This document shows, in pieces, positions 2,331-19,135 of a stretch of DNA of 64,000 nucleotides. The position numbers were made by a program, and so were the translations under genes. The first letter of the stretch is position 1. Each line of letters starts with the position of its first letter. The notes beneath the pieces are model-generated. The model searched no databases. It worked only from the letters and a program-made list of their open reading frames with translations, and was not told where the DNA came from. The DNA is from a phage. The stretch lies in the NCBI GenBank assembly GCA_027262695.1, contig GCA_027262695.1_4722.1; one strand, written 5' to 3'.

Positions 2331-3182
2331 TCAGTTATATTGCATCAACAGGATACCGCCGTAGTTCGTGCAGTAATCTTGACTTAGTGTAACGATAACC
2401 GCATTAGCGAATGCTGGGTTAACCGGATAGCCCTGGGCGATAAGGTCGGTTGTTTTACCTGTTGCGAGCACGGTTGCCCCATACAGGTTGTTTTCGTCCT
2501 CACGACCGTTATAAACCCAAGGGGTTGGTGCAACGTTGTTGAATAAACTCACCAGTGCGCTTAAGTTACTACCAACCTTTAATCCAGCAAGATCGGAACG
2601 GATGGCTGTACAATCAATAGCGTAACTGTAAACCAATGCCTGGATACGATTTGCGGTGTAGTACGGGAAATTGAGGCCGGTCATCACCGTGGTCTTCATC
2701 ATCCCTGCAATATCGCGTGCGCTATCGAGAAGATAAAATTTAACACTCCCTGTCCAGGCTAATCCGGTTGTTTTCAATTCTACGACATGAGGGAACGGAT
2801 ATTCATCACCTCGAACAATCGGAGAATCAACGCAGCTTTCCTGATCGATAACGATTCCGTACGTTGATTGGATCAGCGGGATAAGATCGTGCGTGGTTTT
2901 AACACCGGCATCGATTGCAAGCTTCGGCTCCATTCCCAAGAAGAAATCCTGGATTGGAATACGATCGTACCATACGTAGCTGCTTTCACGGTACTGCGCT
3001 GGTGTTACGGTTGCCGAAGGCGATACTTTAGCGCGGGTATTTCGATTATACGCGTGGTTTCCGTTTTCAGCAACATCCGTGATATCAAGTGCATCGAAGT
3101 TAAAGTCGAAGTCAGGATTGGCTACCTGAATAAGTTCGGCGACCAGTACTTTAGGACTTTTGTTTAACAATTTCTGACTCAT
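2331..3182 (-). CDS. hypothetical protein, paralogue family A
   Basis: 283 aa; WYDRIPIQDF, LIPLIQSTYGIVID and TDRWVLTDNTAPYNLYNAKV align with neighbouring paralogues. Confidence 0.6.
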   Translation of the reverse strand: MSQKLLNKSPKVLVAELIQVANPDFDFNFDALDITDVAENGNHAYNRNTRAKVSPSATVTPAQYRESSYVWYDRIPIQDFFLGMEPKLAIDAGVKTTHDLIPLIQSTYGIVIDQESCVDSPIVRGDEYPFPHVVELKTTGLAWTGSVKFYLLDSARDIAGMMKTTVMTGLNFPYYTANRIQALVYSYAIDCTAIRSDLAGLKVGSNLSALVSLFNNVAPTPWVYNGREDENNLYGATVLATGKTTDLIAQGYPVNPAFANAVIVTLSQDYCTNYGGILLMQYN

Positions 3183-3192
3183 TGTTTATTCC

Positions 3193-4128
3193 TTAGCCTT
3201 GTTCTTTCGGGGAACGGCCCTGAAGGCTTGCGGTATGCCCGTCGACATTATAATAGAAAATCAACGGACCGCCAACAGCAGTACAGTAGTTTTCATCCAG
3301 ACTGATTTCGATGCCGTATTGGTAACCTGCGCGAGCCGGGATACGTTCGCCTAACTCACCGTTGAAATCCACCTTCGCGTTATACAGGTTGTATGGCGCT
3401 GTGTTATCGGTTAATACCCAACGATCGGTGGTCATTTCAGCCAGAAGGTCAGCAACCATCACATCGCTAACAACGGTACCTGTTACCAGCGAAGCCAAAA
3501 GCTCACCGTACTCAGACGTATCGCGACTGTAACTGTAGATTTCACCGCTTGCACGTACACCCTGTCCAAAGAACTTAAGACCGTCCAGCTCTTTGATCGC
3601 GATGATATCATCAAGATTCGGTACACGCGATTTCATCAGGATACGAACGCTCCCCGTCCAAGCCAGGCAACTAGATACGACGCGAAGCAACTGTCCGTTA
3701 ACGGTATCCCAGTTAAGTTCATCGTTGACGATTTCTTCAGCTGTAAGGCCAAGACCGAAACGTTCCTTGATGATAGGCCAGATATCACGCATCTTGGTGG
3801 CGTCTGGCGCATCAATAAGAATAGGCGCTACGTTACGCAGATACGCGCCGATATTAATACGATCGTAATACAGCGTCGTCGAACCTTCATAATCGTCTAA
3901 CTCAGTAAGCTTAGCGGTTGCCGTTGCCGTAATCTGGGTGTCGCGCTCGTAGGCGCTTTGGTTAGTGGTTGGTGTTCCTAAAACCAATAATTCAGGTGTC
4001 AGGACGTGTTCTCCGTTCTGAGGTGGGTTATCGTGGTTGATAAGACCGTACACGAGATCGGATGAAGGTAAAGAGACGTCAACCGGGTAAAGTTCGGTGC
4101 CGTCAGTAGTTGTTACCGTATCACTCAC
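3193..4128 (-). CDS. hypothetical protein, paralogue family A
   Basis: 311 aa; GTG start preceded by gaggagg SD; YYDRINIGAY and TDRWVLTDNTAPYNLYNAKV motifs shared with 2331-3182. Confidence 0.6.
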   Translation of the reverse strand: MSDTVTTTDGTELYPVDVSLPSSDLVYGLINHDNPPQNGEHVLTPELLVLGTPTTNQSAYERDTQITATATAKLTELDDYEGSTTLYYDRINIGAYLRNVAPILIDAPDATKMRDIWPIIKERFGLGLTAEEIVNDELNWDTVNGQLLRVVSSCLAWTGSVRILMKSRVPNLDDIIAIKELDGLKFFGQGVRASGEIYSYSRDTSEYGELLASLVTGTVVSDVMVADLLAEMTTDRWVLTDNTAPYNLYNAKVDFNGELGERIPARAGYQYGIEISLDENYCTAVGGPLIFYYNVDGHTASLQGRSPKEQG

Positions 4129-4187
4129 GGTGGCCTCCTCGCCAGAAATTAGTTAAAAAAGAGTTTGCGATATGCTGCGCTATCACG

Positions 4188-6479
4188 TTAAGCATCCTCG
4201 GTAGGTAATGGTTTCACAATCAAACGATTGAGCGGATTCGATAGGCGCATACTGATAGGCTTATACGCAGCATGATTCGTTTCGCTCAATACAGCGGATC
4301 GGAAGCGACCTTCAACACGTTTATAGATTGGGTTTATCCAAAGACCCTGAAGACCCGGTTGACGGAAACGTTGTTCGATAGGTTTAATCGGTTTCACGGT
4401 CAAACCACGTACCGCTTCTGACGGTATACGTTCGCTGATGTCGCGAGGCGCTCGACCTGGGAATGGAGCCAACCAGAGACCATCCAGCGGGTTCTTACGG
4501 AAACGCAACGAGATAGGATCGCTGATAACCTGCGCCCAGTATTGCGTGCTGAACCGTACCGTCTGGGTATTCTCGTAACCGCTGCAATCGCACCAGGTGG
4601 GTTTCGGCGGGGCTTCTAAGCTCTCAACCGCGGATTCACGCCAGTTCGTCATTGGATTGTTATCATGGACGAATTTGATAACTTCCGTAGCCTGGTTATC
4701 CGTATCGTGAACGTTTGCTTGTGCCCAGTCCTCCCACAGTTCTTCACTGCCGCTTACCAAACTTGAACCGAGTCGAACGGCAATTTTGTTCAGTGGTTTG
4801 ATCGGATCACTGTTGATTGTCTGGATAAAATGGATGGTGTAACTGCTCAGTGTCTTAAGCAGCTGTAGCATCCCGTATTGAATATCCTTAAGACTGGTAA
4901 CGTCTTCCAAGTCTTGACCGGTGGCCTTCGTGAAGATATCGAGAGCCAGAATCCCTGCTTCTTCTTGACTGATTGCGTCAAGTTCCCAATCCATCGCTAA
5001 GAACCATTCCTTGTAAAGCTGTCCAATACCGAAATCAACCCCAACGTCCATGTAGAAGTTTTCAACGATCGCTTCAGCCATACCTCGAGCCTGGTAATGC
5101 TCCTGGAGCTGATACATGAACTGATGACGACGCCAACCCTGGTAAATTTCGGTAACGATGTTAAGAAATTCCTCAGTACTGACGATAGGACGTAATGTCA
5201 CCTGTTTATCTAAACACCACCAGATCAGTTTGTCAGGAATGATAACCGGATCGGTAATGCTACGAAGATGCTCGAATGTCGGTAACGTTAAAACGCGGAC
5301 GTGGTTAGCATGGATCTTAGGCACTTCAATCAGCGTCATACCCATCGAATAGTTCAGCAAATACAAGAATAGCTTGTAGGCATCTTTCATCGACATGGTC
5401 ATGGTATCACCCGTCACCGGGTTGGTGGTGGTTAACCGTGACTGATACATGCCGATGGAACTCAGATGGATCCATTCGTTGAGCAAGAAATCGTATTTCG
5501 GGTATAACTCACTGTCGGTAAGATCTTCCGCTTCACTTTCCAATACCTTGGTTGTTAAGGTATTATTGTCATGCATCGACATCTTCTCTATTGTGCGGTT
5601 AAGCTCGGTATAATACTCCGCTTCGTTATCCCGCGCTAGAGGGAACTGTTGTTGCATTACGGTGGTGACCTTACGACGTACCGTCCCGTTACCAACGATC
5701 TCTTGAAGGTTAAGCGGTTTACGTTCCATGTAAACAGTGGGTTTTAACGTCTGAGGTATTTCGGAAGCGTCTTGTTTGATCGAAAACGCACCGATTGGAA
5801 TGCCACGATCGGTTAATACCTTTTGAATGAGCTTATCGTAGTTTTCCGTTCTACCCATGTTCCTTTCGACGTAAGCGATGTTACGATAGAACCAGAGCAT
5901 TTGGGATTCTGTCATGTATCGCTTGAATCGATCAAGACCTTGATGGCTTGCCAGATAACTCCAGATATGGAAGCTATGGGCATAATGGGTATGACAGTTT
6001 TCCCAACGAATACCTTTTATCATCTCAGGTATTTGTGTGAATAGAATAGCATATAACGCAGGCCAATGAAGCATATCGACGCTTTCATATGCCGGATGTT
6101 CCCAGCGTCTGAAGTAGTCGTCGATTTCTTGCTGTAATCGTGGAATAAGGTTGGCTTCGCGTGATTCAACCTCACGGGTATCGTACCAGAGAATCTCGTG
6201 ATTGCGTGCAGCAATGGCTTTCTCGATATCGATGGGGTTAAGGATACCCAAGATCAACATACGTTGTTCCGGGTACCGTGCAATTAGACGATTGAAATAA
6301 TCTCCGCCGTACGCGTATTCCCTTGCGGTCATGCGGTGCCGTAGCATGTTTTCCTTGGTGAACTCGATCTCTTCGAGCGTATCCAGGGAATTGACGGTCA
6401 TCATTGTCTGACAAGGATGATACTCGCCAGCGAGATTCATGTAGTATAACCACGTGCGTGGGTCGTCCCCGACGGCCAT
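4188..6479 (-). CDS. large hypothetical protein (possible virion protein) with C-terminal short repeats
   Basis: The track ORF 4188-6668 begins with TTG and overlaps the + gene start at 6627; the first ATG at 6479 is the more plausible start; C-terminus carries repeated P-x-x-G-L-W-(L/I)-x-P motifs. Confidence 0.55.
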   Translation of the reverse strand: MAVGDDPRTWLYYMNLAGEYHPCQTMMTVNSLDTLEEIEFTKENMLRHRMTAREYAYGGDYFNRLIARYPEQRMLILGILNPIDIEKAIAARNHEILWYDTREVESREANLIPRLQQEIDDYFRRWEHPAYESVDMLHWPALYAILFTQIPEMIKGIRWENCHTHYAHSFHIWSYLASHQGLDRFKRYMTESQMLWFYRNIAYVERNMGRTENYDKLIQKVLTDRGIPIGAFSIKQDASEIPQTLKPTVYMERKPLNLQEIVGNGTVRRKVTTVMQQQFPLARDNEAEYYTELNRTIEKMSMHDNNTLTTKVLESEAEDLTDSELYPKYDFLLNEWIHLSSIGMYQSRLTTTNPVTGDTMTMSMKDAYKLFLYLLNYSMGMTLIEVPKIHANHVRVLTLPTFEHLRSITDPVIIPDKLIWWCLDKQVTLRPIVSTEEFLNIVTEIYQGWRRHQFMYQLQEHYQARGMAEAIVENFYMDVGVDFGIGQLYKEWFLAMDWELDAISQEEAGILALDIFTKATGQDLEDVTSLKDIQYGMLQLLKTLSSYTIHFIQTINSDPIKPLNKIAVRLGSSLVSGSEELWEDWAQANVHDTDNQATEVIKFVHDNNPMTNWRESAVESLEAPPKPTWCDCSGYENTQTVRFSTQYWAQVISDPISLRFRKNPLDGLWLAPFPGRAPRDISERIPSEAVRGLTVKPIKPIEQRFRQPGLQGLWINPIYKRVEGRFRSAVLSETNHAAYKPISMRLSNPLNRLIVKPLPTEDA

Positions 6480-9956: not shown

Positions 9957-12548
9957 TTACTGTTCGTCGCGTTCCAACAGGTACTCGGAAGCCGTAACAC
10001 CGTTTACAGTACGGATGGCTTTCAGACGTGTATCATCGTTCAGAATCACGGTAACAGACTGCAGACCTTTTACCTTGGTTTCGAAGGTTTTGAATACCTG
10101 GTCTAACATACGTGCGATGCTTGGGTTGGTGGCAGCTGATGCGTGGGTATACCCACTCTGATTAAGTTTCAGAATCTTCGCGTTGGTTGGTACACGAACG
10201 ATAACATGCGGACGCATAGCGAACACGCTGTGGTTGAACCAGTACGCATCCGGGCTGTCTTCATCGGTCACGAGGTCTGGATGGGTCTGCATATCTTCAG
10301 CTGCAGCATCCGCCAAACGACGTTCGATTTCGTCAGCATCCAGAGAACCATCTTTCTCCAGCTCGGCACGATACTCATCCATGATTGCTGCACGACGCTC
10401 TTGATTTGCGACCATCTTATCATGAGCCGCATTCAGGTAGTCGTTCATGCTGTAAAGCTCTGCCATGGAAAGACGGATGTTCCACTGACCACCACCGTCA
10501 CGATTGCAGTAGAGGCATTTCAACATATTGCCCCAGGTGTGATAGCAACGGGTGAACTCGTCTTCGATGAACTTCTGATCCATTTTAAGTTCGTTGATCA
10601 GCCAGCTATACAGCTCACCGACATCATCTACGAAGCTTGCAATGGTGGTTTCAGAGAAGTTCTTAGGTACAACACGCTTGATCCATTTGTTGATGTCTTT
10701 GGTCATGCTGTCGTTCAGGAAATGCCAGATACGCAGAGGGATAACCTCTCTGTGTTGTTGCATGACCTGACGATAGGCTGACACACCTTCAATATGACCT
10801 TTATCAATAGACAGGGCATCCAGGAATTCCTGGATAGCATCAAGCTGTTTATCGGTGTAGGTTCCCAGGTAGGAATTGACTGTGGTCAGGAACGCCAAAG
10901 CATCGTTCTGGTTGACGTCGGTATTGGTCTGCTGGATGATCGCAACCGTCGCTTTGGTTTCAGCGTCTTCGATGCTGGATGCCGGAACCATGTCAGTGAC
11001 AGTGAACAGTTTCATCTCACGCTGTTCGCCAACAACAATCGGTTCACGTCTAACCGGTTTGTTCAGGCTAACACGCACAACTTCTGCTTGCGCGATACGA
11101 TCCCATTCTGCCATTTCCAGCTCCGCCATACGACGTGCGGTTGGATCTGTTTCAAGTTGAATGTATTCCATTTCTTCCACCGTAAGTGAGGTAATATCAA
11201 CAATGGTTTCATGAAGAATTCCATTTTCGTCGATGCGAGCACGACGAGCGAATTGCCTGAAGTCATACGCGGTTGGCCAACGGCTATCAGGTGCGTAGTC
11301 TTTGGCTTTCAGACGCATTTGCATGAATTCTTCATGGTGAACAACACGACCGTATTGCTTCGCATCTTCGGTCGCATCAAGAGGGTCAACCGTTTTGGTT
11401 ACCGTTGCAGGACGTACGCTACGTACCGGCTCAGGTTTTACCTTCACGGTTTCAGGTTGAGTAGGCGCTTTCTGCTCAGCCTTAACATGCCATTTCGGTT
11501 CTTCGTACTGCTCAGCGAATTGCTCAGCTACCGCAAAGATATCGTTGATACCGCCGATATCTCCATCCGGATGGGTTGAGTAAATACGCGTTTGTGGTGC
11601 TTCCCGACGTGTTGCTGCCGGAGCAGGTTTATCGTCAACTGGGTCATCATCACCAACATCGTACAAACGGTTGAACGCACACTCCTTCGAATCCATATAC
11701 GAAGGTGCTTGCTGCTGAACAACCGTTGGTCGAGGTTGTGTGCCGTATCCTGGCATTGTCGGAGCCATACCACGCATAACCGCTGGATTAGGTTGGTACT
11801 GCGGCTGAGGATAAGCTCCACCGTACGTGTTATACACAGGTTGTTGAGGTTGACCGTATCCGGCGTTGACCATCGCGTTTGCTTGCGGTCCGCGATAGGT
11901 CATTCCCAACTGCGTTACCTGCGCTTTTAACGCACGTGTCTTCTGCGCGATTTGATTCAGAGTCCCACCTTGATTCAGTTGTGTATACTTATTCGCTGCT
12001 TCCGGGTTAATGCGCGTTAATTCCTTTGCACGATAATACTCAGGATATTGATTGGCCTCAAAGAGCCACTGTACAAGATGCATAAGTATCGTTGTACGTA
12101 CCGCGGTGTCGATAATCTGATCGACTGAAGCATTCTGAGGCGCTGGGTTGATGTAAGAGAATACGTTCCAGCAGCAGTCTTCAACAAGTGACTCCATCGC
12201 CTCGTTGTTATTGGCGTAACGTGCCACGAACTGTGTTTGAATATCGTCTTGCTGGGCATGCTCTTTCAGGATAACAAAGATAGCCTGACGGATTTTGACG
12301 ATATTTCCTTCGTTGGTGATGAACTGGTAGTTCTGCTGATATGCTGGATTAGGTTGGTATTGCGGTGGTTGTTGGTAACCGCCCCCGTATTGTGGATAAG
12401 CCGGTTGCTGGGGTTGGTACGGAGGTTGTTGATATTGCGGTTGCTGGTACTGTTGTTGACGCACCTGGTCAGCTGCAAATCGAACCGTGCTTGCGTACGG
12501 GTTCTCGCTATAGCCCATTTGTTGGTAAATGTTGTTACCGTTATACAT
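9957..12548 (-). CDS. hypothetical protein with Gln/Pro/Tyr-rich low-complexity (prion-like) regions
   Basis: 863 aa ORF; N-terminal QQYQQPQYQQPPYQPQQPAYPQYGGGYQQPPQYQPNPAYQQNYQ and internal GYGQPQQPVYNTYGGAYPQPQYQPNPA tracts; the DNA shows matching degenerate repeats near 12340-12480 and 11700-11900. Confidence 0.65.
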   Translation of the reverse strand: MYNGNNIYQQMGYSENPYASTVRFAADQVRQQQYQQPQYQQPPYQPQQPAYPQYGGGYQQPPQYQPNPAYQQNYQFITNEGNIVKIRQAIFVILKEHAQQDDIQTQFVARYANNNEAMESLVEDCCWNVFSYINPAPQNASVDQIIDTAVRTTILMHLVQWLFEANQYPEYYRAKELTRINPEAANKYTQLNQGGTLNQIAQKTRALKAQVTQLGMTYRGPQANAMVNAGYGQPQQPVYNTYGGAYPQPQYQPNPAVMRGMAPTMPGYGTQPRPTVVQQQAPSYMDSKECAFNRLYDVGDDDPVDDKPAPAATRREAPQTRIYSTHPDGDIGGINDIFAVAEQFAEQYEEPKWHVKAEQKAPTQPETVKVKPEPVRSVRPATVTKTVDPLDATEDAKQYGRVVHHEEFMQMRLKAKDYAPDSRWPTAYDFRQFARRARIDENGILHETIVDITSLTVEEMEYIQLETDPTARRMAELEMAEWDRIAQAEVVRVSLNKPVRREPIVVGEQREMKLFTVTDMVPASSIEDAETKATVAIIQQTNTDVNQNDALAFLTTVNSYLGTYTDKQLDAIQEFLDALSIDKGHIEGVSAYRQVMQQHREVIPLRIWHFLNDSMTKDINKWIKRVVPKNFSETTIASFVDDVGELYSWLINELKMDQKFIEDEFTRCYHTWGNMLKCLYCNRDGGGQWNIRLSMAELYSMNDYLNAAHDKMVANQERRAAIMDEYRAELEKDGSLDADEIERRLADAAAEDMQTHPDLVTDEDSPDAYWFNHSVFAMRPHVIVRVPTNAKILKLNQSGYTHASAATNPSIARMLDQVFKTFETKVKGLQSVTVILNDDTRLKAIRTVNGVTASEYLLERDEQ

Positions 12549-12582
12549 CTTCTTACAATCCTTTTATTTATTCGATTAGGTG

Positions 12583-14379
12583 TCAATCGATTATGTCACG
12601 ATCGTTAATTTCTACAATTTCTTCATCGAATCGACCGACGTCTTTCTTCAAGCCTGCGTTTGTTGCTGCAACGTCATTTGCGATTTGTGGGGTAACGATT
12701 AACCGACCACGATCGTCAATCGGTGCGTACATACTGAACTTCTGGCGTCCGGTTGGTTCGGAGTGCGGAAGATTCAGATAGCTCGCGCAGAACGGGATGG
12801 AACCGCTCACCAAACGACTCTCGTCAGCCAATGCGGCACCGCCCGCATTTTGACTCTGGAGAACAACATGTGTACTTACTTTGAACAGCATGCAGTCACC
12901 AGGTGATTGAATCGAGGTTGCCACTTTCTCGCGTTTATCACGATTGCTCTGGATGTTGAGAATCGCTTCTGTTGCAACTTGATTGCGTAACGCTTTTTGT
13001 ACATCGCGATTGGTCATCTCTTTCCGGTTGTTCTGTCGTTTACCACGTTCAGTGGTTTTAAGATGGAACCCCAGTTTAAAGATGCTCTTACGCACATCCT
13101 CCATGACGTATTCCAACACCATCAGTTCCTTACCGAACATCGTCGTGGTGTCGACACGACTCATTTCGATAGTGACGTTATCAATCAAATACGCCATGAA
13201 TTCGTAGAAGTCGTCGCACGGAATATTTTCCTGTTTGAACTTCTTCTGTTGAATTTCGTCAACGTAAAGATCGAGGCTGTCGATGTGGTGGTTTACATCA
13301 CGCAACAAACGCGCATCCGCGTTGTTGTTATTAAAGATAATCAAACCGAGTAGCGTACGCCAGTGGTCTGGCGCATTCGCGAACTCTTCAACCGGATAGT
13401 CTTCTGGAAAACGATCGTAATAACGGTCGATGAGATAGAGGAACGCACCGACAAGACCGAGCACAATACGTTCCGTGCCGCCACGTCTTACCGCGATTTG
13501 AATATCAGGATGTTTATAACGTACCGCGCTAACGCTACGACTCTTACCGCTTTTGCTAATACTAAAGCCTTTAGGAATAACGCCCATGGTGCGATAGATT
13601 ACCCATTGGTCGCGCGGAAAATCACGTTCAGCGAGATTCCGTCCGGTTATTGCTTCGACGCCTGCAAAACGCCGGAAACATTCACCCACGCCATATTTCG
13701 CAAAGAGATAATGGCCCAACGTGGTTACGCTGGTGTGGTTGATGTTGTCCCCGTTCACCTTGCTTTGTTTGGTAAGGTGATAGATTTGCGACCAGGGCAA
13801 TGACAAGTAATGTCGATAATCATTACCGGTTGGTGTATCATTGCTCAGGAACTGATACGGCGTACGCTTAACGGTGATTTTGTCACGCGGAAGCATGATG
13901 AACGCCATGTCTTTCGTGTAACTGATTACCGGGTCAGCAAGCACCGCACTGAGAATGAAGTTCGCACCACGTAGACGCATCTTGCCACCCTGACCTACCG
14001 CAGGCAATAGGAGAGGATGCCGGATGATGCAGTAATCCTTGCCGGGTTCACGACGGTCACCTGCTTCCATCGCGCCATACCAGCGGAATTCCAGCATCAC
14101 CATGAACACATCGGAAGGCGCAAGGTCGAACGTCAGCTTACCGCTATCCTTCCCTTTGGTTTTCTTTCCTCCGCTTAAGTAGTGAAACTGTTCGCGGGCC
14201 ATACAACGACGTAGGCCATGATACACCAGATCCTTAGGTAAACTATCTTTGCTGTTCCGCCAAAGACGATCGACGTAGGACTCAACATCTTGCATCTTAT
14301 CGACAACGATGTTGCGTGCTATCTTCTCGTTCATCTTCGGTGCAAGCTCAGCGACAGCTTTGCAGAATCTAGGATCCAT
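12583..14379 (-). CDS. hypothetical protein
   Basis: about 598 aa; the track start is GTG at 14382 and the adjacent ATG at 14379 is preferred; preceded by tgtaaggag SD-like sequence; no recognisable catalytic motif. Confidence 0.6.
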   Translation of the reverse strand: MDPRFCKAVAELAPKMNEKIARNIVVDKMQDVESYVDRLWRNSKDSLPKDLVYHGLRRCMAREQFHYLSGGKKTKGKDSGKLTFDLAPSDVFMVMLEFRWYGAMEAGDRREPGKDYCIIRHPLLLPAVGQGGKMRLRGANFILSAVLADPVISYTKDMAFIMLPRDKITVKRTPYQFLSNDTPTGNDYRHYLSLPWSQIYHLTKQSKVNGDNINHTSVTTLGHYLFAKYGVGECFRRFAGVEAITGRNLAERDFPRDQWVIYRTMGVIPKGFSISKSGKSRSVSAVRYKHPDIQIAVRRGGTERIVLGLVGAFLYLIDRYYDRFPEDYPVEEFANAPDHWRTLLGLIIFNNNNADARLLRDVNHHIDSLDLYVDEIQQKKFKQENIPCDDFYEFMAYLIDNVTIEMSRVDTTTMFGKELMVLEYVMEDVRKSIFKLGFHLKTTERGKRQNNRKEMTNRDVQKALRNQVATEAILNIQSNRDKREKVATSIQSPGDCMLFKVSTHVVLQSQNAGGAALADESRLVSGSIPFCASYLNLPHSEPTGRQKFSMYAPIDDRGRLIVTPQIANDVAATNAGLKKDVGRFDEEIVEINDRDIID

Positions 14380-14418
14380 CACACACTCCTTACAGAAAGT
14401 TGCTTAAGCAGATTAAAG

Positions 14419-15801
14419 TTATTTCTTCGATGACGCCTTCTCAAGAATCTTGAAAAAGGTCATACCTATACCGACAACGGCTGCGGTGATGCTTGCTGCA
14501 GCTTTCCAGACATCGACGTTACGTTGACGTCGTGCTTCTTCCGCCTCACGTTGTCTTTTTGCCTCTTCATCACGTCGGCGTATTTCAGCAGCGAATTCCT
14601 CATGCTTACGTTTCGCGTCTTCGTCTCGGCGACGCATTTCAGCGATAAGTTCATCGTGCTTACGTTTCGCGTCTTCATCGCGACGTTTGAGTTCAGCCAG
14701 ATGGTCATCTTGCATTTGTCGCCGAAGTTCGTCCTGACGTTTTATTTCGGCTCTATGCTGCTCATCACGCAGTTTTGCTTCAGCGCGATGGGTCTCTTGC
14801 ATCCGTTCGATGACGTCTTTATGTTCATCCGCCATACGTCGCATTTCAGCCATCACCCCTTTAAGGGTTTCTTCTGATGACTTACGTTCGTAGCTACGCT
14901 GGTCGAAATCATTTTTGTAGGCTTCCTTCTGGATGGGATCGCGCCAATGCAATGCCGATTCGCGGGTTGGAAAAACATTGTATTTCCACATTTCTTTTTC
15001 CAAATCTTCTACCGGTACGAAGACGGAATCATTATTCCCGAAGGTAACCAACATCCCTGGAGCACCTGCCCCGTTCGTTGGTTTTATTTCGAACGCTTTC
15101 CCCAAGACGTTAACCCATAAGCTGTACGGATTATGGAAGTCTGGTGGCGTCCAATGGATGGTGAGCTGTGTTCCGAGAATCCGGAACCCCTCTGGTTTTC
15201 CTGTTAAACTTCGCGCACATGTTGCGATATAGGGGTGATCAATCCCTTTCGTAACATGGTCAGCGCTTTTGTATTCTCCTTTAACTTTTACGATTGCCAC
15301 GTTAATTTGCGCGACATACACAGGTTGATTAAAATTTAAGGCTGTTAGGTCTATTCGACATATCTCGTCCAAGGTGTCGTACCAATCTTCCTGGTCGAGC
15401 AACCTGGGTTTTCTCTCGACGCACGTAATGCGTCGGATATGGGGTTTTCTTACCGCATAACCGCTTCGGTTTTTAACGCCCAGTATATCCCGTCGTCTAC
15501 CGTCGTAGACGAAGTTCTTGAACGCGCCATTCGCATTAGATATGTCATGGCTGTCAACTATTACAGGACTACGAAATTTTGAACGTCGTACGATCCTGAA
15601 TGTGTTACCCTCTTCGACCCTACCTGGAATGTATTGGAACATATTGTCGGATGTAATGACCAATACCGTATGCCCAGACTCATTAATACAACCCCACCCT
15701 AACTCTAAGTCATATAACGGTTCCTGGTATCCGTCGATGCTATACGTGCCTGTGCCATCCCACGGCTCAAACGGCGTATCGCAAACCGGCATAGAGGACA
15801 T
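14419..15801 (-). CDS. tail-anchored membrane protein with tandem 18 aa coiled-coil repeats
   Basis: 460 aa; four Arg/Glu/Lys-rich 18-residue repeats (e.g. AELKRRDEDAKRKHDELI) followed by a C-terminal hydrophobic segment AAASITAAVVGIGMTFFKIL; gagggagg SD. Confidence 0.6.
   Translation of the reverse strand: MSSMPVCDTPFEPWDGTGTYSIDGYQEPLYDLELGWGCINESGHTVLVITSDNMFQYIPGRVEEGNTFRIVRRSKFRSPVIVDSHDISNANGAFKNFVYDGRRRDILGVKNRSGYAVRKPHIRRITCVERKPRLLDQEDWYDTLDEICRIDLTALNFNQPVYVAQINVAIVKVKGEYKSADHVTKGIDHPYIATCARSLTGKPEGFRILGTQLTIHWTPPDFHNPYSLWVNVLGKAFEIKPTNGAGAPGMLVTFGNNDSVFVPVEDLEKEMWKYNVFPTRESALHWRDPIQKEAYKNDFDQRSYERKSSEETLKGVMAEMRRMADEHKDVIERMQETHRAEAKLRDEQHRAEIKRQDELRRQMQDDHLAELKRRDEDAKRKHDELIAEMRRRDEDAKRKHEEFAAEIRRRDEEAKRQREAEEARRQRNVDVWKAAASITAAVVGIGMTFFKILEKASSKK
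14550..14760. repeat. in-frame tandem 54 bp repeats inside the CDS
   Basis: catgcttacgtttcgcgtcttcgtctcggcgacgcatttcagc and cgtgcttacgtttcgcgtcttcatcgcgacgtttgagttcagc spaced 54 bp apart, with further degenerate copies flanking. Confidence 0.6.
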
Positions 15802-16013
15802 TGATTATCCTCCCTCAAACAGACAACATACATGCATAATGCACGTCCCTTTTCTTGTTATCATCACAACGACAGTCGACGGTTTCAGCATCATTCTTAG
15901 CGCGAGAACGACCTTACGTGTTGTCTATGCCTTTTTTCATTGAAGGCTTCTGTCACCTAGGTAATGTAAGCGTCAAATTTTTTCTAATCTAACCCAGCAT
16001 AACAGCATAATAA

Positions 16014-16043
16014 CCTCCCTCAGCCCGTAAGGACCGAGGGAGG
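16014..16043. terminator. conserved GC-rich hairpin (family copy 3) downstream of the putative major capsid gene
   Basis: cctccctc-agcccgtaaggacc-gagggagg; located 3' of the stop at 16143 on the minus strand. Confidence 0.5.
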
Positions 16044-16142
16044 TTGACTTATGTATCACGGTGCCGGATGAATGTCCGGTGTAATGAAACCATCCGCAAC
16101 GTTGTTTTCAAGAACTTCATCCAACGAAGCAGCTCCGGTATT

Positions 16143-18365
16143 TCAGTTAGTCTGAACCGGCAGCTTGATGTTTTCAGTGTAGACCTTACGCAGGTTCACA
16201 ACGTTGATCAGACCCAGCAGCGGGCAGTTGTTCACGAAACGGCAGCGCGGCTGAACCATGGTTTCTTTAGAAACCTGACCGTTACGAGTAACCTGAGCAA
16301 CGGATACCAGTTCCGGTACGTACAGGAACATACCGAAGGTCAGCGGATCCGGAGAACCCTGGATACCACGAGACAGGGTCACGAAGATCTTGTCGCGCAA
16401 CATGACGTTCGGGTTGTCTACAACCACGAAGTTGAAGCTTACACCCACGGTGCGGAAGTCACCGTCGGTCTGCAGGAACTGCGGGATGTAGTTGTCGGTT
16501 GCTACTACGCAACGCGGTTTCTCATCAGCGTTGGAAGACAGCAGCTGCAGAGCTGGCTGATAACCAGACTCGGAGTACATGCGGTACGCCATTTCACGAA
16601 TCACGTTCATGATCGCAGCGGATACTTCAGCACGACGTTCTGCAGTGGTGGTACCCTGAACGGATTTCTCCAGGTCCAGATCGATTTCTTCGAACCACGG
16701 ACGAATCAGGTAACGACCGAAACCTTCGATCTGAATGTCACCGAACTGACGGAAGCGAGAAGTTGCAACCGCTTTCAGGGCGTCTTTGTAGCTGAACAGT
16801 TTCTCAACCATCAGGTTGTCGAAACGTGCGTTAGCTGCTTGGATCAGAACATCCAGGTCAGCAGCGTTTTCTTCCCAATCCAGCGGACGAGGAATGGAGA
16901 ACGGAGCCAGCAGGCCGATTGCGTAACGTTCTTGCTTCATGTTGAAGTCAAGATGTTTACCGCGTTCACGACGGTTGCTGTTGTTACGACGGATACGCAG
17001 TTCGTAACCCACCAGTTTGAAGCTCAGGTCTTCAGCCAGATCTTTGAATTCCTGGCTCTTACGCGGTTGTTCGATGTTGTCCTGGTCAACCAGACGATAC
17101 AGTTCAGCGGTAGCGCCATTAACACGCAGACCCGCTTTCTCTACGTTGGAAGAACCGTAAACTTCGATCGCCAGCTGAGCAGCAGATTTCGCATCGATGA
17201 TGTCCTGCAGCGCTTCAGCTTTCGCACCTTTAACGTCAACGGTGTTCTCATCAACGAAGATGGAGTGGGTGTCGAACGCCAGGGTCATTTTGCGGAAGTC
17301 GCCTTCCAGGGATTTCTGGAAACCGTTGGTGATCAGACCGGATACGTCGAACGGAACGTAAGAGGTTTTGCTGTGCTTGGTGGATTTAATTTCCACCAGG
17401 ATTTTGGTCAGCGTGATCTGAGCATCCAGCGCGTCAGTGTTGTCGCTGTAACCGTTAGCCAGAATGCTATCGTCTTCAGCGATACCGATCATGTCGATCA
17501 GTTTATCAACCGCCAGGTAAGACGTTTTGTAAGTAACGCCTTTGATTTCGATGTCGCGCGGAGCAACGATGGTTTTATCAACGAAGTACTGCGCGTTAGC
17601 ATCGTCAGCACGGTAGATCGGATGCAGATCGGTCACGTCGTTGGACAGAACGTCGTTGTACATGAACGCATCCAGCAGCGGACGACGTACCCAATCAGCC
17701 GGAGTACCATCACCGTTACGACGCAGGTGGTTGAACACCAGCGGACGACGGAAGGAAACGTCATAACCGATCTGGTTCGGAGCCAGAACGATGGTGTTGT
17801 ACAGTTCGTTACCCATGCGGCTCAGACGAGACGCCTTCACGTTGAACACAACGGAGTACGGCATCATGTCACGCAGTTCTTTCTGGTCGTAGGACAGCTG
17901 AACCAGTTCTTCAGATTCACAACCGCAGGAATCCGCAGCCATCATGACGAAGTTAGCGCTGTCAACATCACGGCCGGACGGCGAGGTGCTGATGTTCATG
18001 GAACGTGCTTGTTTAGCATATTCCACCGGGTTGCCATGTGCCAGCATGATCAGCGCTGCAGCGCGAGCCTGCTGTGCGTTCATGGTGAACAGCTGTTCTT
18101 CAATACGTTGCTTCTCTTCCGGAGTTGTGGTTTCGAAGCCCAGCATGGACAGAACCGGTTCTTCAGCTTTACGGATGTCGCTGCTGAAGCTCTTAACATC
18201 CATTTCGTTAACCAGTTTGTCCATGGATTTGAAATCAACCTTAGAAGCAGATTCCATAGACAGGAAGGTGTTTTCCAGACCTTTGTCTGCTGGTTTGCTA
18301 CCATTAGCGGTCAGGAACTGGCGAGTGGCCGCGACCTGTTGGCTAAGAAGGGTTTTATCATTCAT
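16143..18365 (-). CDS. putative major capsid protein (highly expressed virion protein)
   Basis: 740 aa, the size class of jumbo-phage major capsid proteins; codon usage strongly biased to CTG/CGT/GGT/AAC/TTC unlike its neighbours; helical N-terminal region resembling a propeptide; the function is inferred, not matched to a database. Confidence 0.45.
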   Translation of the reverse strand: MNDKTLLSQQVAATRQFLTANGSKPADKGLENTFLSMESASKVDFKSMDKLVNEMDVKSFSSDIRKAEEPVLSMLGFETTTPEEKQRIEEQLFTMNAQQARAAALIMLAHGNPVEYAKQARSMNISTSPSGRDVDSANFVMMAADSCGCESEELVQLSYDQKELRDMMPYSVVFNVKASRLSRMGNELYNTIVLAPNQIGYDVSFRRPLVFNHLRRNGDGTPADWVRRPLLDAFMYNDVLSNDVTDLHPIYRADDANAQYFVDKTIVAPRDIEIKGVTYKTSYLAVDKLIDMIGIAEDDSILANGYSDNTDALDAQITLTKILVEIKSTKHSKTSYVPFDVSGLITNGFQKSLEGDFRKMTLAFDTHSIFVDENTVDVKGAKAEALQDIIDAKSAAQLAIEVYGSSNVEKAGLRVNGATAELYRLVDQDNIEQPRKSQEFKDLAEDLSFKLVGYELRIRRNNSNRRERGKHLDFNMKQERYAIGLLAPFSIPRPLDWEENAADLDVLIQAANARFDNLMVEKLFSYKDALKAVATSRFRQFGDIQIEGFGRYLIRPWFEEIDLDLEKSVQGTTTAERRAEVSAAIMNVIREMAYRMYSESGYQPALQLLSSNADEKPRCVVATDNYIPQFLQTDGDFRTVGVSFNFVVVDNPNVMLRDKIFVTLSRGIQGSPDPLTFGMFLYVPELVSVAQVTRNGQVSKETMVQPRCRFVNNCPLLGLINVVNLRKVYTENIKLPVQTN

Positions 18366-18514
18366 TGAAAGTATCCTTTACAGATTTAACTTATATAAGT
18401 CGGTCGATAGACCATAGCGTACACGCGTGCATGCGCCACTATAGTATCAGTAAACACTTACCGTTATTGAGGTTGTGATACAACACTAAAAATGCCGCAT
18501 AACTTTTCCCTACG
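18366..18514 (-). promoter_or_regulatory. upstream region of the putative capsid gene with palindromic sites
   Basis: 149 bp gap; contains the palindrome cacgcgtg (18422-18429), gcatgc, and a tatataag box about 30 nt before the ATG; tgtaaagga SD 8 nt before the ATG. Confidence 0.3.
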
Positions 18515-19135
18515 TCACAAACGACGCAGGCGATAATGGATGGAACGATTGGTGCAATATGAACGGAACAGCGGTAATTGCGCAACTTCCGCAAGACTCA
18601 TATTAATTCGCAGATGTTCGATAACCGCGCTGTAGTTATCGGCGATACGATCGCTCAGTAACTCTTCTGCCAATAAAGGAAGACAATCGACAACGATGGC
18701 GATCACATCCTCATTAACATAACGCACCCGAACATTGAGTGGACGTTTGTCTGGGCCGTAAGTTGGATCCGCCAAACGACGTTCAATATCGCGTGGATAG
18801 CTCGTCAGTAAATGGTAATAACCATTGTCATAACGATTGATGTACTCACACAGCACATCAACATTCTTCTCTGGCGGCAAACCTGTTTCGTCATAGTGAT
18901 ACGCAAACATACCACCAAGCAGGTTGTTAAGATGAACAGCCGCATTCGTTTGTTCGTGTTCTTTCGTAATGAAGAAAGGCACGTTCTGAGCTGCGAAATA
19001 AAAACCTACATCATTGGGCGATAGTATGCCGAAAAGACTTTTAGGATCCAACAGCACCTGTAAGTCATCACGCGCATTTCGCATAATCGCGTGTTCTACC
19101 CAATTCGGAACGACGAGATATCGGAGTTCCTTCAT
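18515..19135 (-). CDS. hypothetical protein
   Basis: 206 aa ORF. Confidence 0.55.
   Translation of the reverse strand: MKELRYLVVPNWVEHAIMRNARDDLQVLLDPKSLFGILSPNDVGFYFAAQNVPFFITKEHEQTNAAVHLNNLLGGMFAYHYDETGLPPEKNVDVLCEYINRYDNGYYHLLTSYPRDIERRLADPTYGPDKRPLNVRVRYVNEDVIAIVVDCLPLLAEELLSDRIADNYSAVIEHLRINMSLAEVAQLPLFRSYCTNRSIHYRLRRL

Follow-up and report, generated by a model that had tools for sequence, protein, structure and literature searches.

The window analysed here, a stretch of 64,000 nucleotides (nt) of phage DNA (contig GCA_027262695.1_4722.1 of assembly GCA_027262695.1), comes from a Goslar-like nucleus-forming jumbo phage (chimallivirus), with 92% nt identity to Escherichia phage vB_EcoM_Goslar over positions 12000-19000. 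Our subject is an open reading frame (ORF) of 460 amino acids (aa) on its minus strand, whose product corresponds in the Goslar lineage to an orthologous chimallivirus core protein, known in other phages as phiKZ gp122, phiPA3 gp138, 201phi2-1 gp202 and SPN3US gp76. This family has been known so far as an uncharacterised core gene only, and the Goslar counterpart, gp040 (gp40), carries the annotation 'hypothetical protein'. The protein is made up of a globular head, a long charged segment that is probably a stiff ER/K-type single alpha-helix, and a hydrophobic C-terminal element. We give about an even chance to a reading in which it is an early, anchor-tethered spacer that acts at the phage-nucleus stage, near the ChmA/ChmB shell, and is expressed with the adjacent gene for a subunit of the non-virion RNA polymerase (nvRNAP). 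In this regard, published data on its relatives seem to tie the protein to the phage nucleus and not to the capsid.

The first-pass annotation of this ORF had described four in-frame charged repeats of 54 bp with a heptad-like, coiled-coil character. The repeats themselves were readily recovered: Tandem Repeats Finder (TRF) reported a 54-nt period with 77-80% matches within the ORF, a repeat search on the DNA gave three copies at 54/54 nt spacing, and self-comparison of the protein yielded 32% identity at offset 18 against ~10% at other offsets. Three of the units are clear (those at aa 369, 387 and 405, with 9-13 of 18 residues in common) and the one at aa 351 has diverged, sharing 5-7 of 18 residues with the other three, whereas the unit-by-unit comparison found no repetition before aa 351. 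The coiled-coil part of the description was not supported. Between aa 315 and 430, where 58% of the residues are D, E, K or R and 16% belong to the set ILVMFWY, pairs of opposite charge are about twice as frequent as expected at i+3 (39 versus 19.0+-3.4) and i+4 (34 versus 18.7+-3.4), and depleted at i+1 (7 versus 19.3+-3.5), with charge periodicities of 5.9 and 9.3 aa standing out in a periodogram of the helix (power 6.0, compared with maxima of 2.8+-0.7 in shuffles). The hydrophobic occupancy of a/d positions in the best register of the same segment is 0.35 (0.48 if Ala is counted), which compares with 0.32+-0.04 in shuffles and reveals no heptad core; control sequences of tropomyosin and GCN4 gave 0.57 (0.86 with Ala) and 0.85, respectively. 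Moreover, the helical hydrophobic moment of the charged segment (90-110 degrees) was equalled by 67 of 500 shuffles and is therefore not significant. AlphaFold2 (AF2) draws a single unbroken helix from 289 to 418, then a break and a second helix from 430 to 456. Because of the salt-bridge enrichment at i+3 and i+4 and the absence of a hydrophobic heptad core, we read the charged segment as an ER/K single helix, which would probably work as a stiff spacer of ~19 nm and not as a coiled coil. The segment also shows alternating acidic and basic blocks, and in the AF2 monomer it is predicted as one long helix without tertiary contacts. A narrow seam is nonetheless present in the three youngest units, where the residues at positions 3, 10, 14 and 17 (L/M/I, A, H and L/F) line up along a single face (160-220 degrees), so a weak straight bundle held through this L/A/H/L seam is conceivable. 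Two other ORFs drawn over the repeat region (14466-14877), 14524..14877 on the plus strand and 14466..14708 on the minus strand, are spurious by-products of periodic, stop-poor repeats, and none of the other real ORFs of the window has a comparable hydrophobic tail or charged stretch.

Copy-number variation between isolates, which had been anticipated from the repeats, does occur. Close relatives in public assemblies have 460, 478, 489 and 507 aa, with indels of +18, +11 and +18 aa, and Goslar gp40, at 478 aa, differs in length from the 460-aa protein by exactly one 18-aa indel; the three Goslar-like loci of IMG/VR are all of the 478-aa type. Every length indel among these close relatives falls within the charged helix, and neither the last three units nor the tail varies. 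Since 18 and 11 residues amount to ~5 and ~3 helical turns, we infer that these indels roughly preserve the rotational phase of the head with respect to the anchor. One relative (P0007, alignment A2) combines a head identical to that of the window protein with a linker of Goslar type (478 aa), which suggests within-gene recombination between lineages. Across the whole family the linker ranges from ~41 to ~188 aa with unrelated sequences, and two orthologues from Erwinia pEa_SNUABM_8-like phages (P0024 and P0027) carry in the same linker tandem 11-aa units of their own, RKD[ST]YDERGTV, in 3-4 copies. The linker has been enlarged by tandem duplication more than once, and independently, in this family. 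Goslar-like phage genes were also found in many bacterial assemblies (NCBI assemblies of Salmonella enterica and E. coli O157; P0001 and P0012-P0014), including complete contigs of ~244 kb, which suggests either a carrier state or contamination; two of these sequences, P0013 and P0014, are truncated gene calls starting at aa 134.

At its C-terminus, the ORF ends as first described, in a single hydrophobic helix and a final KK: the protein closes with ...RRQRNVDVWK-AAASITAAVVGIGMTFF-KILEKASSKK. Kyte-Doolittle (KD) hydropathy peaks in this protein at the uncharged run of 17 residues (1.76 for the 19-mer at aa 435-453 and 1.82 for the 17-mer), which is the sole hydrophobic segment within ~30 residues of the C-terminus; the N-terminus is polar, and the protein shows no signal peptide or other hydrophobic segment. 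As measures of a spanning segment, we find 17 uncharged residues (20 if K451 snorkels), KD above the classical 1.6 and an Eisenberg <H> of 0.63, together with a low hydrophobic moment of 0.29 and a composition rich in A, G and S. Of 21 family sequences, 15 (13 of the 18 distinct ones) have at their very end a Lys and then 16-17 hydrophobic residues, and in most members this apolar stretch of 16-17 residues comes after a juxta-tail motif, RK[DN][ST]xE[FW][LW]K-x-[IV]P. Lipid-anchor-like tails, with moments of 0.23-0.34, flanking Lys and many small residues, are seen in the Goslar, Xanthomonas, Ralstonia and SPN3US lineages. A hydrophobic C-terminal element is therefore a family trait, for which a true transmembrane (TM) helix is plausible only in some lineages, that of the window included, where it is borderline. 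As for the membrane tether that the first-pass annotation proposed, the tail-anchor-like layout with its basic end stands, whereas the TM call is weakened by the borderline tail and by the amphipathic tails of the Pseudomonas-phage orthologues.

The head, on the contrary, gave no hint of function. Its AF2 models reached a predicted local distance difference test (pLDDT) value of ~50 in two runs, based on alignments of 8 and 16 sequences, so the secondary structure is usable and the fold is of low confidence. Searches of Pfam, NCBIfam and PDB sequences with the protein and with the family profile found no match, and Foldseek against the PDB with the AF2 head model returned only noise (best E 0.24, TM-score about 0.1). 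With no recognisable fold or family for the head, we propose no biochemical activity for it. That the ORF is a real gene follows from purifying selection in every part of it: the ratio of nonsynonymous to synonymous variation (pN/pS) against Goslar ranges from 0.00 to 0.19, with 0.10 in the head, 0.16-0.19 in the helix and 0.00 for aa 423-460 (0 nonsynonymous and 11 synonymous changes), which makes the tail the most constrained part of the protein.

The assignment to the phiKZ gp122 family was obtained at the level of profiles. An hhalign comparison of the Goslar group (alignment A3) with the phiKZ gp122 group (A4) gave 98.3% and E 2.2e-14 over aa 17-288, and phiPA3 gp138 matches phiKZ gp122 by BLASTP at 3e-33, their orthology being supported by annotation as well. 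Direct matches are weak, both to phrog_7727 (3.7e-5) and by profile against phiPA3 gp138 alone. The phiKZ gp122 group falls into PHROGs 7286, 7727 and 15024, none of which has an assigned function. An exhaustive HMMER scan retrieved only three cluster representatives, of which the two distant ones have 31-32% identity and the same three-part layout with unrelated ER/K linkers; single-protein locus scans returned only three Goslar-like loci, and none for P0015 or P0016. A profile restricted to the N-terminal domain added only SPN3US-like and Erwinia-phage members, a word-indexed profile search being swamped by ER/K low complexity. In 13 genomes, the two most distant relatives included, the order is that of the gene for the major capsid protein (MCP), the gp122-type gene, a gp123-like gene and a gp124-like gene, and in those two relatives the series extends to a DnaB helicase gene and a gene of ~205 aa before the MCP gene. 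The slot between the MCP and the gp123-type gene is occupied in ten other chimalliviruses by one gene of 334-384 aa, named phiKZ gp122, 201phi2-1 gp202, PhiPA3 gp138, SPN3US gp76, RSF1 gp123, pVa-21 012, 2050HW gp40, RP12 093 and Xoo-sp14 gp122. The window protein has the homologous N-domain, the slot between MCP and nvRNAP genes, and the same three-part layout, with a charged linker and a C-terminal hydrophobic or amphipathic helix. It differs in the helix, which is longer in the Goslar lineage (~130-190 versus ~41-95 aa) and partly made of 18-aa tandem units, and, compared with the Pseudomonas-phage orthologues, to which identity is only 13-19%, in a clearly more hydrophobic, TM-like tail. 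The Pseudomonas chimalliviruses have an extra small ORF of 150-177 aa, overlapping the gp122-type gene at its start (Table 1) and absent in the enterobacterial, Ralstonia, Xanthomonas and Vibrio phages compared. In the Salmonella phage database protein SPFM7_00207 (P0028) the sequence blocks of SPN3US gp76 appear in reversed order, in what looks like a gene-call or assembly artefact. Our literature search found nothing on Goslar gp40 and no use of 'tail-anchored' with chimallivirus; mentions of 'gp122' or 'gp202' in other papers refer to unrelated genes and were set aside.

The position of the gene directly downstream of a putative capsid gene was correctly observed, since a true phiKZ-type MCP gene adjoins it on the 5' side, but the link to the capsid that this position invites did not hold. 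The ORF lies 341 nt from the MCP gene versus 36 nt from the gene of the nvRNAP subunit, and in the 13 loci the corresponding gaps are 196-341 nt and -1 to 114 nt. In addition, a GC-rich tetraloop hairpin occurs 14-103 nt past the MCP stop codon in all 13 chimallivirus loci compared (L001-L003, L005-L011, L015 and L016 besides the window). That of the window has a folding free energy (dG) of -44.5 kcal/mol in an 81-nt context (z -6.8), and its pairing is maintained in Goslar through compensatory changes. Because of this conserved hairpin after the MCP gene and of the gap sizes, the 460-aa gene most likely shares its transcription unit with the nvRNAP subunit gene and not with the capsid gene. 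The lower stem of these hairpins is often conserved, reading ACAUA...UAUGU, and their 3' side is often rich in U; they could be either terminators or elements that stabilise the very abundant MCP transcript. Between hairpin and ORF, in an otherwise variable intergenic region, a block of ~38 nt fully conserved with Goslar is a candidate promoter or regulatory element; it has no second occurrence within the window, where the TAYATTAC promoter motif is not enriched either (4 found versus 3.5 expected). Further downstream, the gp124-like protein has long Q/P/Y-rich low-complexity stretches at aa ~30-75 and ~215-280, as phiKZ gp124 likewise does, and its C-terminal part gave a sub-threshold match to the N-terminal SAM-like domain of tyrosine recombinases; knock-down of phiKZ gp124 cuts middle-gene transcripts as much as that of ChmA (mean log2 fold change (log2FC) -1.66).

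Table 1. Coordinates of the 460-aa ORF, its parts and neighbouring features; positions refer to the window except for the small overlapping ORFs, which are given in their own loci
Feature	Position	Strand	Details
ORF under study	14419..15801	minus	complete, ATG start, 460 aa; orthologue of Goslar gp40, phiKZ gp122, phiPA3 gp138, SPN3US gp76
Shine-Dalgarno of the 460-aa ORF	15809..15816	minus	GAGGGAGG, strong; 7 nt before ATG
N-terminal head, globular, mostly beta	14932..15801	minus	aa 1 to about 290; family motifs F-x-N-E-S-x-H, HP, F-x-T-x-x-x-A
Continuous charged alpha-helix (predicted)	14548..14937	minus	aa 289-418 (~130 aa, ~19 nm); AF2 helix H289-418, pLDDT 70-81, monomer model
Four tandem 54-nt / 18-aa units	14536..14751	minus	aa 351-422: AEIKRQDELRRQMQDDHL, AELKRRDEDAKRKHDELI, AEMRRRDEDAKRKHEEFA, AEIRRRDEEAKRQREAEE
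C-terminal hydrophobic anchor (putative)	14443..14508	minus	aa 432-453, WK-AAASITAAVVGIGMTFF-KIL; AF2 helix 430-456
Basic C-terminal end EKASSKK	14422..14442	minus	compare phiPA3 ...ILEKLFKKR
Conserved block of ~38 nt, candidate promoter or regulatory element	15949..15986	minus	TAGAAAAAATTTGACGCTTACATTACCTAGGTGACAGA; 100% conserved with Goslar; between hairpin and ORF
GC-rich tetraloop hairpin, terminator-like	16012..16045	minus	~88 nt past the MCP stop; between MCP gene and 460-aa ORF
Upstream (5') gene, phiKZ-type MCP	16143..18365	minus	PF25620 PhiKZ_MCP, E 4.5e-217
Downstream (3') gene, nvRNAP subunit, phiKZ gp123 homologue	12583..14382	minus	BLASTP 6e-57; PDB 7OGP chain E, E 5.8e-41; phrog_2943
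gp124-like protein, 863 aa	9957-12548	minus	downstream of the nvRNAP subunit gene
Small overlapping ORF gp121, phiKZ	L002 7952-8404		
Small overlapping ORF gp201, 201phi2-1	L005 6905-7423		
Small overlapping ORF gp137, PhiPA3	L011 6288-6821		

What the protein may do has to be approached through its orthologues. An antisense screen of phiKZ counts PHIKZ122 among the uncharacterised genes of the core genome, gives it the phenotype '+' and names its depletion among those strongly affecting phage transcription at 30 min (PMC12571901). In the source data of Fig. 3 of that work, the PHIKZ122 transcript runs through 3405, 4255, 2581, 2201 and 945 over 5-30 min in the control, and with chmA knocked down it stays at 2896 to 5928; PHIKZ123 tracks PHIKZ122, and the MCP transcript behaves in the opposite way, with a rise from 21k to 121k that occurs only if ChmA is produced (PMC12571901). 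The phiKZ orthologue is, in short, an early transcript, unlike that of the MCP. We re-analysed the knock-down RNA sequencing of the same paper for 24 of the phage genes at 15 min; within this set, the profile of the PHIKZ122 knock-down correlates best with those of ChmA (0.87), nvRNAP subunit 055 (0.86) and PicA (0.83), and for the block of middle genes PHIKZ147-152 the tabulated values give a mean log2FC of -1.32, the sixth strongest of 41, behind 055, 069, 054, 124 and 068. As for the surroundings of the protein, the passage of PMC10643120 that bears on it places the phiPA3 orthologue, which we take to be the gp138 meant there, in ChmA and ChmB pull-downs and in ChmA miniTurboID, and describes the same ChmB pull-downs as rich in capsid proteins. 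The 201phi2-1 orthologue, gp202, has no virion-protein flag, unlike gp198 and gp200 next to it. According to a review, the inner membrane is where chimallivirus capsids assemble (PMC12908238). Our literature search found neither a phage-encoded membrane anchor or tether for capsid assembly nor any phage protein under 'EPI vesicle' together with 'transmembrane', EPI standing for early phage infection.

Altogether, the following picture may be drawn. Chimalliviruses pass through two compartments, a lipid EPI vesicle and then a protein nucleus. A beta-rich head of ~290 aa would be held by the ER/K single helix as a stiff spacer of ~19 nm, whose length shifts between isolates by 18 or 11 residues, steps that would leave the head at roughly the same rotational angle to the anchor. 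After translation, the C-terminal helix would tether the protein and leave its head in the cytoplasm; here the anchoring site would most likely be a lipid bilayer, entered as a tail anchor, and in the Pseudomonas phages the tail may be an amphipathic helix that binds a membrane or a partner. To judge from the orthologues, expression would be early and shared with the neighbouring nvRNAP subunit gene, not with the capsid gene, and the protein would act near the chimallin shell while the phage nucleus and nvRNAP-dependent transcription become established. A more specific version, to which we attach little credence for now, makes the protein a tail-anchored molecular ruler in the membrane of the EPI vesicle or in the inner membrane, with its head on ChmA/ChmB, which would couple the lipid compartment to the nascent shell.

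Several observations weigh against this early, anchored spacer. The functional data all come from Pseudomonas-phage orthologues with 13-19% identity to the window protein, and the knock-down re-analysis draws on single values in reads per kilobase per million (RPKM) for those 24 genes at 15 min. According to the authors of the screen, the 122 knock-down does not cluster with those of ChmA, nvRNAP and PicA at 30 min (PMC12571901). In the tabulated data the mRNAs of 122, 123 and 124 are not lowered by the antisense oligomer, and gp123 starts 10 nt downstream in phiKZ; the phenotype of the 122 knock-down could accordingly be a polar or translational-coupling effect on gp123. The choice between single helix and coiled coil was decided by sequence statistics only. 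As for the tail, its uncharged run has only 17 aa, a simple Hessa sum gives a borderline +2.8 kcal/mol, and the Eisenberg <H> is 0.63. In phiKZ, 201phi2-1, phiPA3 and Serratia 2050HW the tail does not resemble a TM helix (summed dG of about +7 to +9, with acidic residues inside) and is amphipathic, ending in phiPA3 with ...GSVLDFMGELAKADSILEKLFKKR; should the function be the same throughout, the tail might bind a protein instead of spanning a bilayer.

This last point leads to the most serious of the rival explanations, in which the tail is embedded in the shell and not in lipid. Plugged into the chimallin lattice or into a partner, it would let the head project ~7-26 nm into the cytoplasm, where it could capture, for example, cargo, ribosomes, mRNA or capsids. 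The recovery of the phiPA3 orthologue in ChmA/ChmB pull-downs and by ChmA proximity labelling, in the passage cited above, would fit such a projection, as would the acidic residues in the amphipathic tails of the Pseudomonas phages, an uncharged run that is constantly of 16-17 aa and thus short for a bilayer, and a knock-down that resembles those of PicA and ChmA; the lipid-anchor-like tails of the Goslar, Xanthomonas, Ralstonia and SPN3US lineages, with their moments of 0.23-0.34, speak for lipid instead. We consider a shell-embedded tail a serious rival to a lipid-embedded one, possible if on the unlikely side. Rather improbable is a tether for capsid assembly, anchored in the inner membrane and with a head that binds MCP, portal or scaffold and so nucleates procapsids or holds them at the membrane. 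The gene stands directly after that of the MCP in every genome compared, procapsids are partially assembled on the inner membrane with no tether known (PMC12908238), capsid proteins abound in the ChmB pull-downs reported to contain the phiPA3 orthologue, and a 201phi2-1 gp202 that is not flagged as a virion protein, unlike gp198 and gp200, fits an assembly factor that is left behind. Yet the conserved terminator-like hairpin separates the gene from that of the MCP, its tight linkage is to the early nvRNAP gene, the PHIKZ122 mRNA is early and declines as that of the MCP rises, and the knock-down lowers middle-gene transcripts by 15 min, before capsid assembly.

The charged helix may also be seen as part of a parallel oligomer, with the 18-aa units (7+7+4, an 18/5 periodicity) forming a straight, non-supercoiled bundle through the L/A/H/L seam and with small-xxx-small packing in the tail. 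The common face of positions 3, 10, 14 and 17 in the youngest three units and a tail rich in A, G and S are what such a bundle would need, but the shuffle-level a/d occupancy, the non-significant moment, the scarcity of strongly hydrophobic residues (16%), the strong salt-bridge enrichment at i+3/i+4 and the unrelated orthologue linkers of ~41-188 aa make it quite improbable in our opinion. A membrane protein of lysis, spanin- or holin-like, would share with our protein one hydrophobic helix and a long helical region, a superficial likeness to the i-spanins; nevertheless, the hydrophobic helix lies at the C-terminal and not the N-terminal end and a signal sequence is missing, so that most of the protein would be cytoplasmic, the neighbours are MCP and nvRNAP genes with no lysis cassette nearby, expression is early, and phiKZ has a separate annotated Rz-like spanin, gp141. 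On topology, gene context and timing we rejected this role, which appears extremely improbable. A role as an anchor for PhuZ was likewise dropped, as the gene, with a good tail, is present in SPN3US-like phages, of which at least a part presumably lacks PhuZ. Asesino is without PhuZ, to go by the title of PMC11724907.

Returning to the reading of an anchored ER/K spacer, this is new for the gp122 family, although its design principles are already known. ER/K single alpha-helix (SAH) or charged single alpha-helix (CSAH) domains, such as those of myosin VI and X, caldesmon and a Trichomonas Kelch-motif protein, are stiff spacers. Like them, the window helix has a very high content of E, D, K and R, blocks of three acidic and then three basic residues, opposite charges at i+3/i+4 and no hydrophobic core; unlike classical E/K helices, it is richer in Arg and Asp and is followed, in a phage protein, by a hydrophobic anchor at the C-terminus. 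Bacterial C-tail-anchored proteins of the inner membrane, ElaB, YqjD and YgaM (DUF883), have a charged helical cytoplasmic part, a short basic end and no signal peptide, and the window protein resembles them in its charged helical part, its one C-terminal hydrophobic helix and its basic end, whereas it is not related to them in sequence (no Pfam match at E<=0.1) and has a much larger head, a far longer helix and a shorter hydrophobic run (17 aa). The C-terminal amphipathic membrane-targeting sequences of MinD and FtsA find their parallel in the Pseudomonas-phage orthologues, which end in an amphipathic helix and a basic end (phiPA3 ...DSILEKLFKKR); the window protein shares ...ILEK...KK with these, but its 17 residues are uniformly apolar and its moment of 0.29 would favour insertion over surface binding. 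With the i-spanins (Rz) it has in common one membrane helix and a long helical rod, and differs in an anchor placed at the opposite end, a cytoplasmic and not periplasmic body, the lack of a heptad core and of a lysis context, and early expression.

As a protein, the 460-aa product offers a clean natural example of what is probably an ER/K helix that changes its length by tandem units of 18 aa, that is, of five turns. For the biology of these phages, the literature searched assigns no phage-encoded membrane-anchored factor to the EPI vesicle, nucleus or capsid-assembly steps, and a lipid-anchor-like tail combined with a stiff, length-polymorphic spacer makes a concrete candidate bearing on the connection between membrane and shell. 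In the data available on the relatives, the phiKZ orthologue appears to be needed for full middle-gene transcription and the phiPA3 orthologue to lie close to the shell. If the ruler version were true, the protein would be the first identified membrane-to-shell tether in the biogenesis of the phage nucleus, helping genome and nvRNAP-dependent transcription to be passed to that compartment, with a spacer tuned in whole-turn quanta of 18 and 11 residues.

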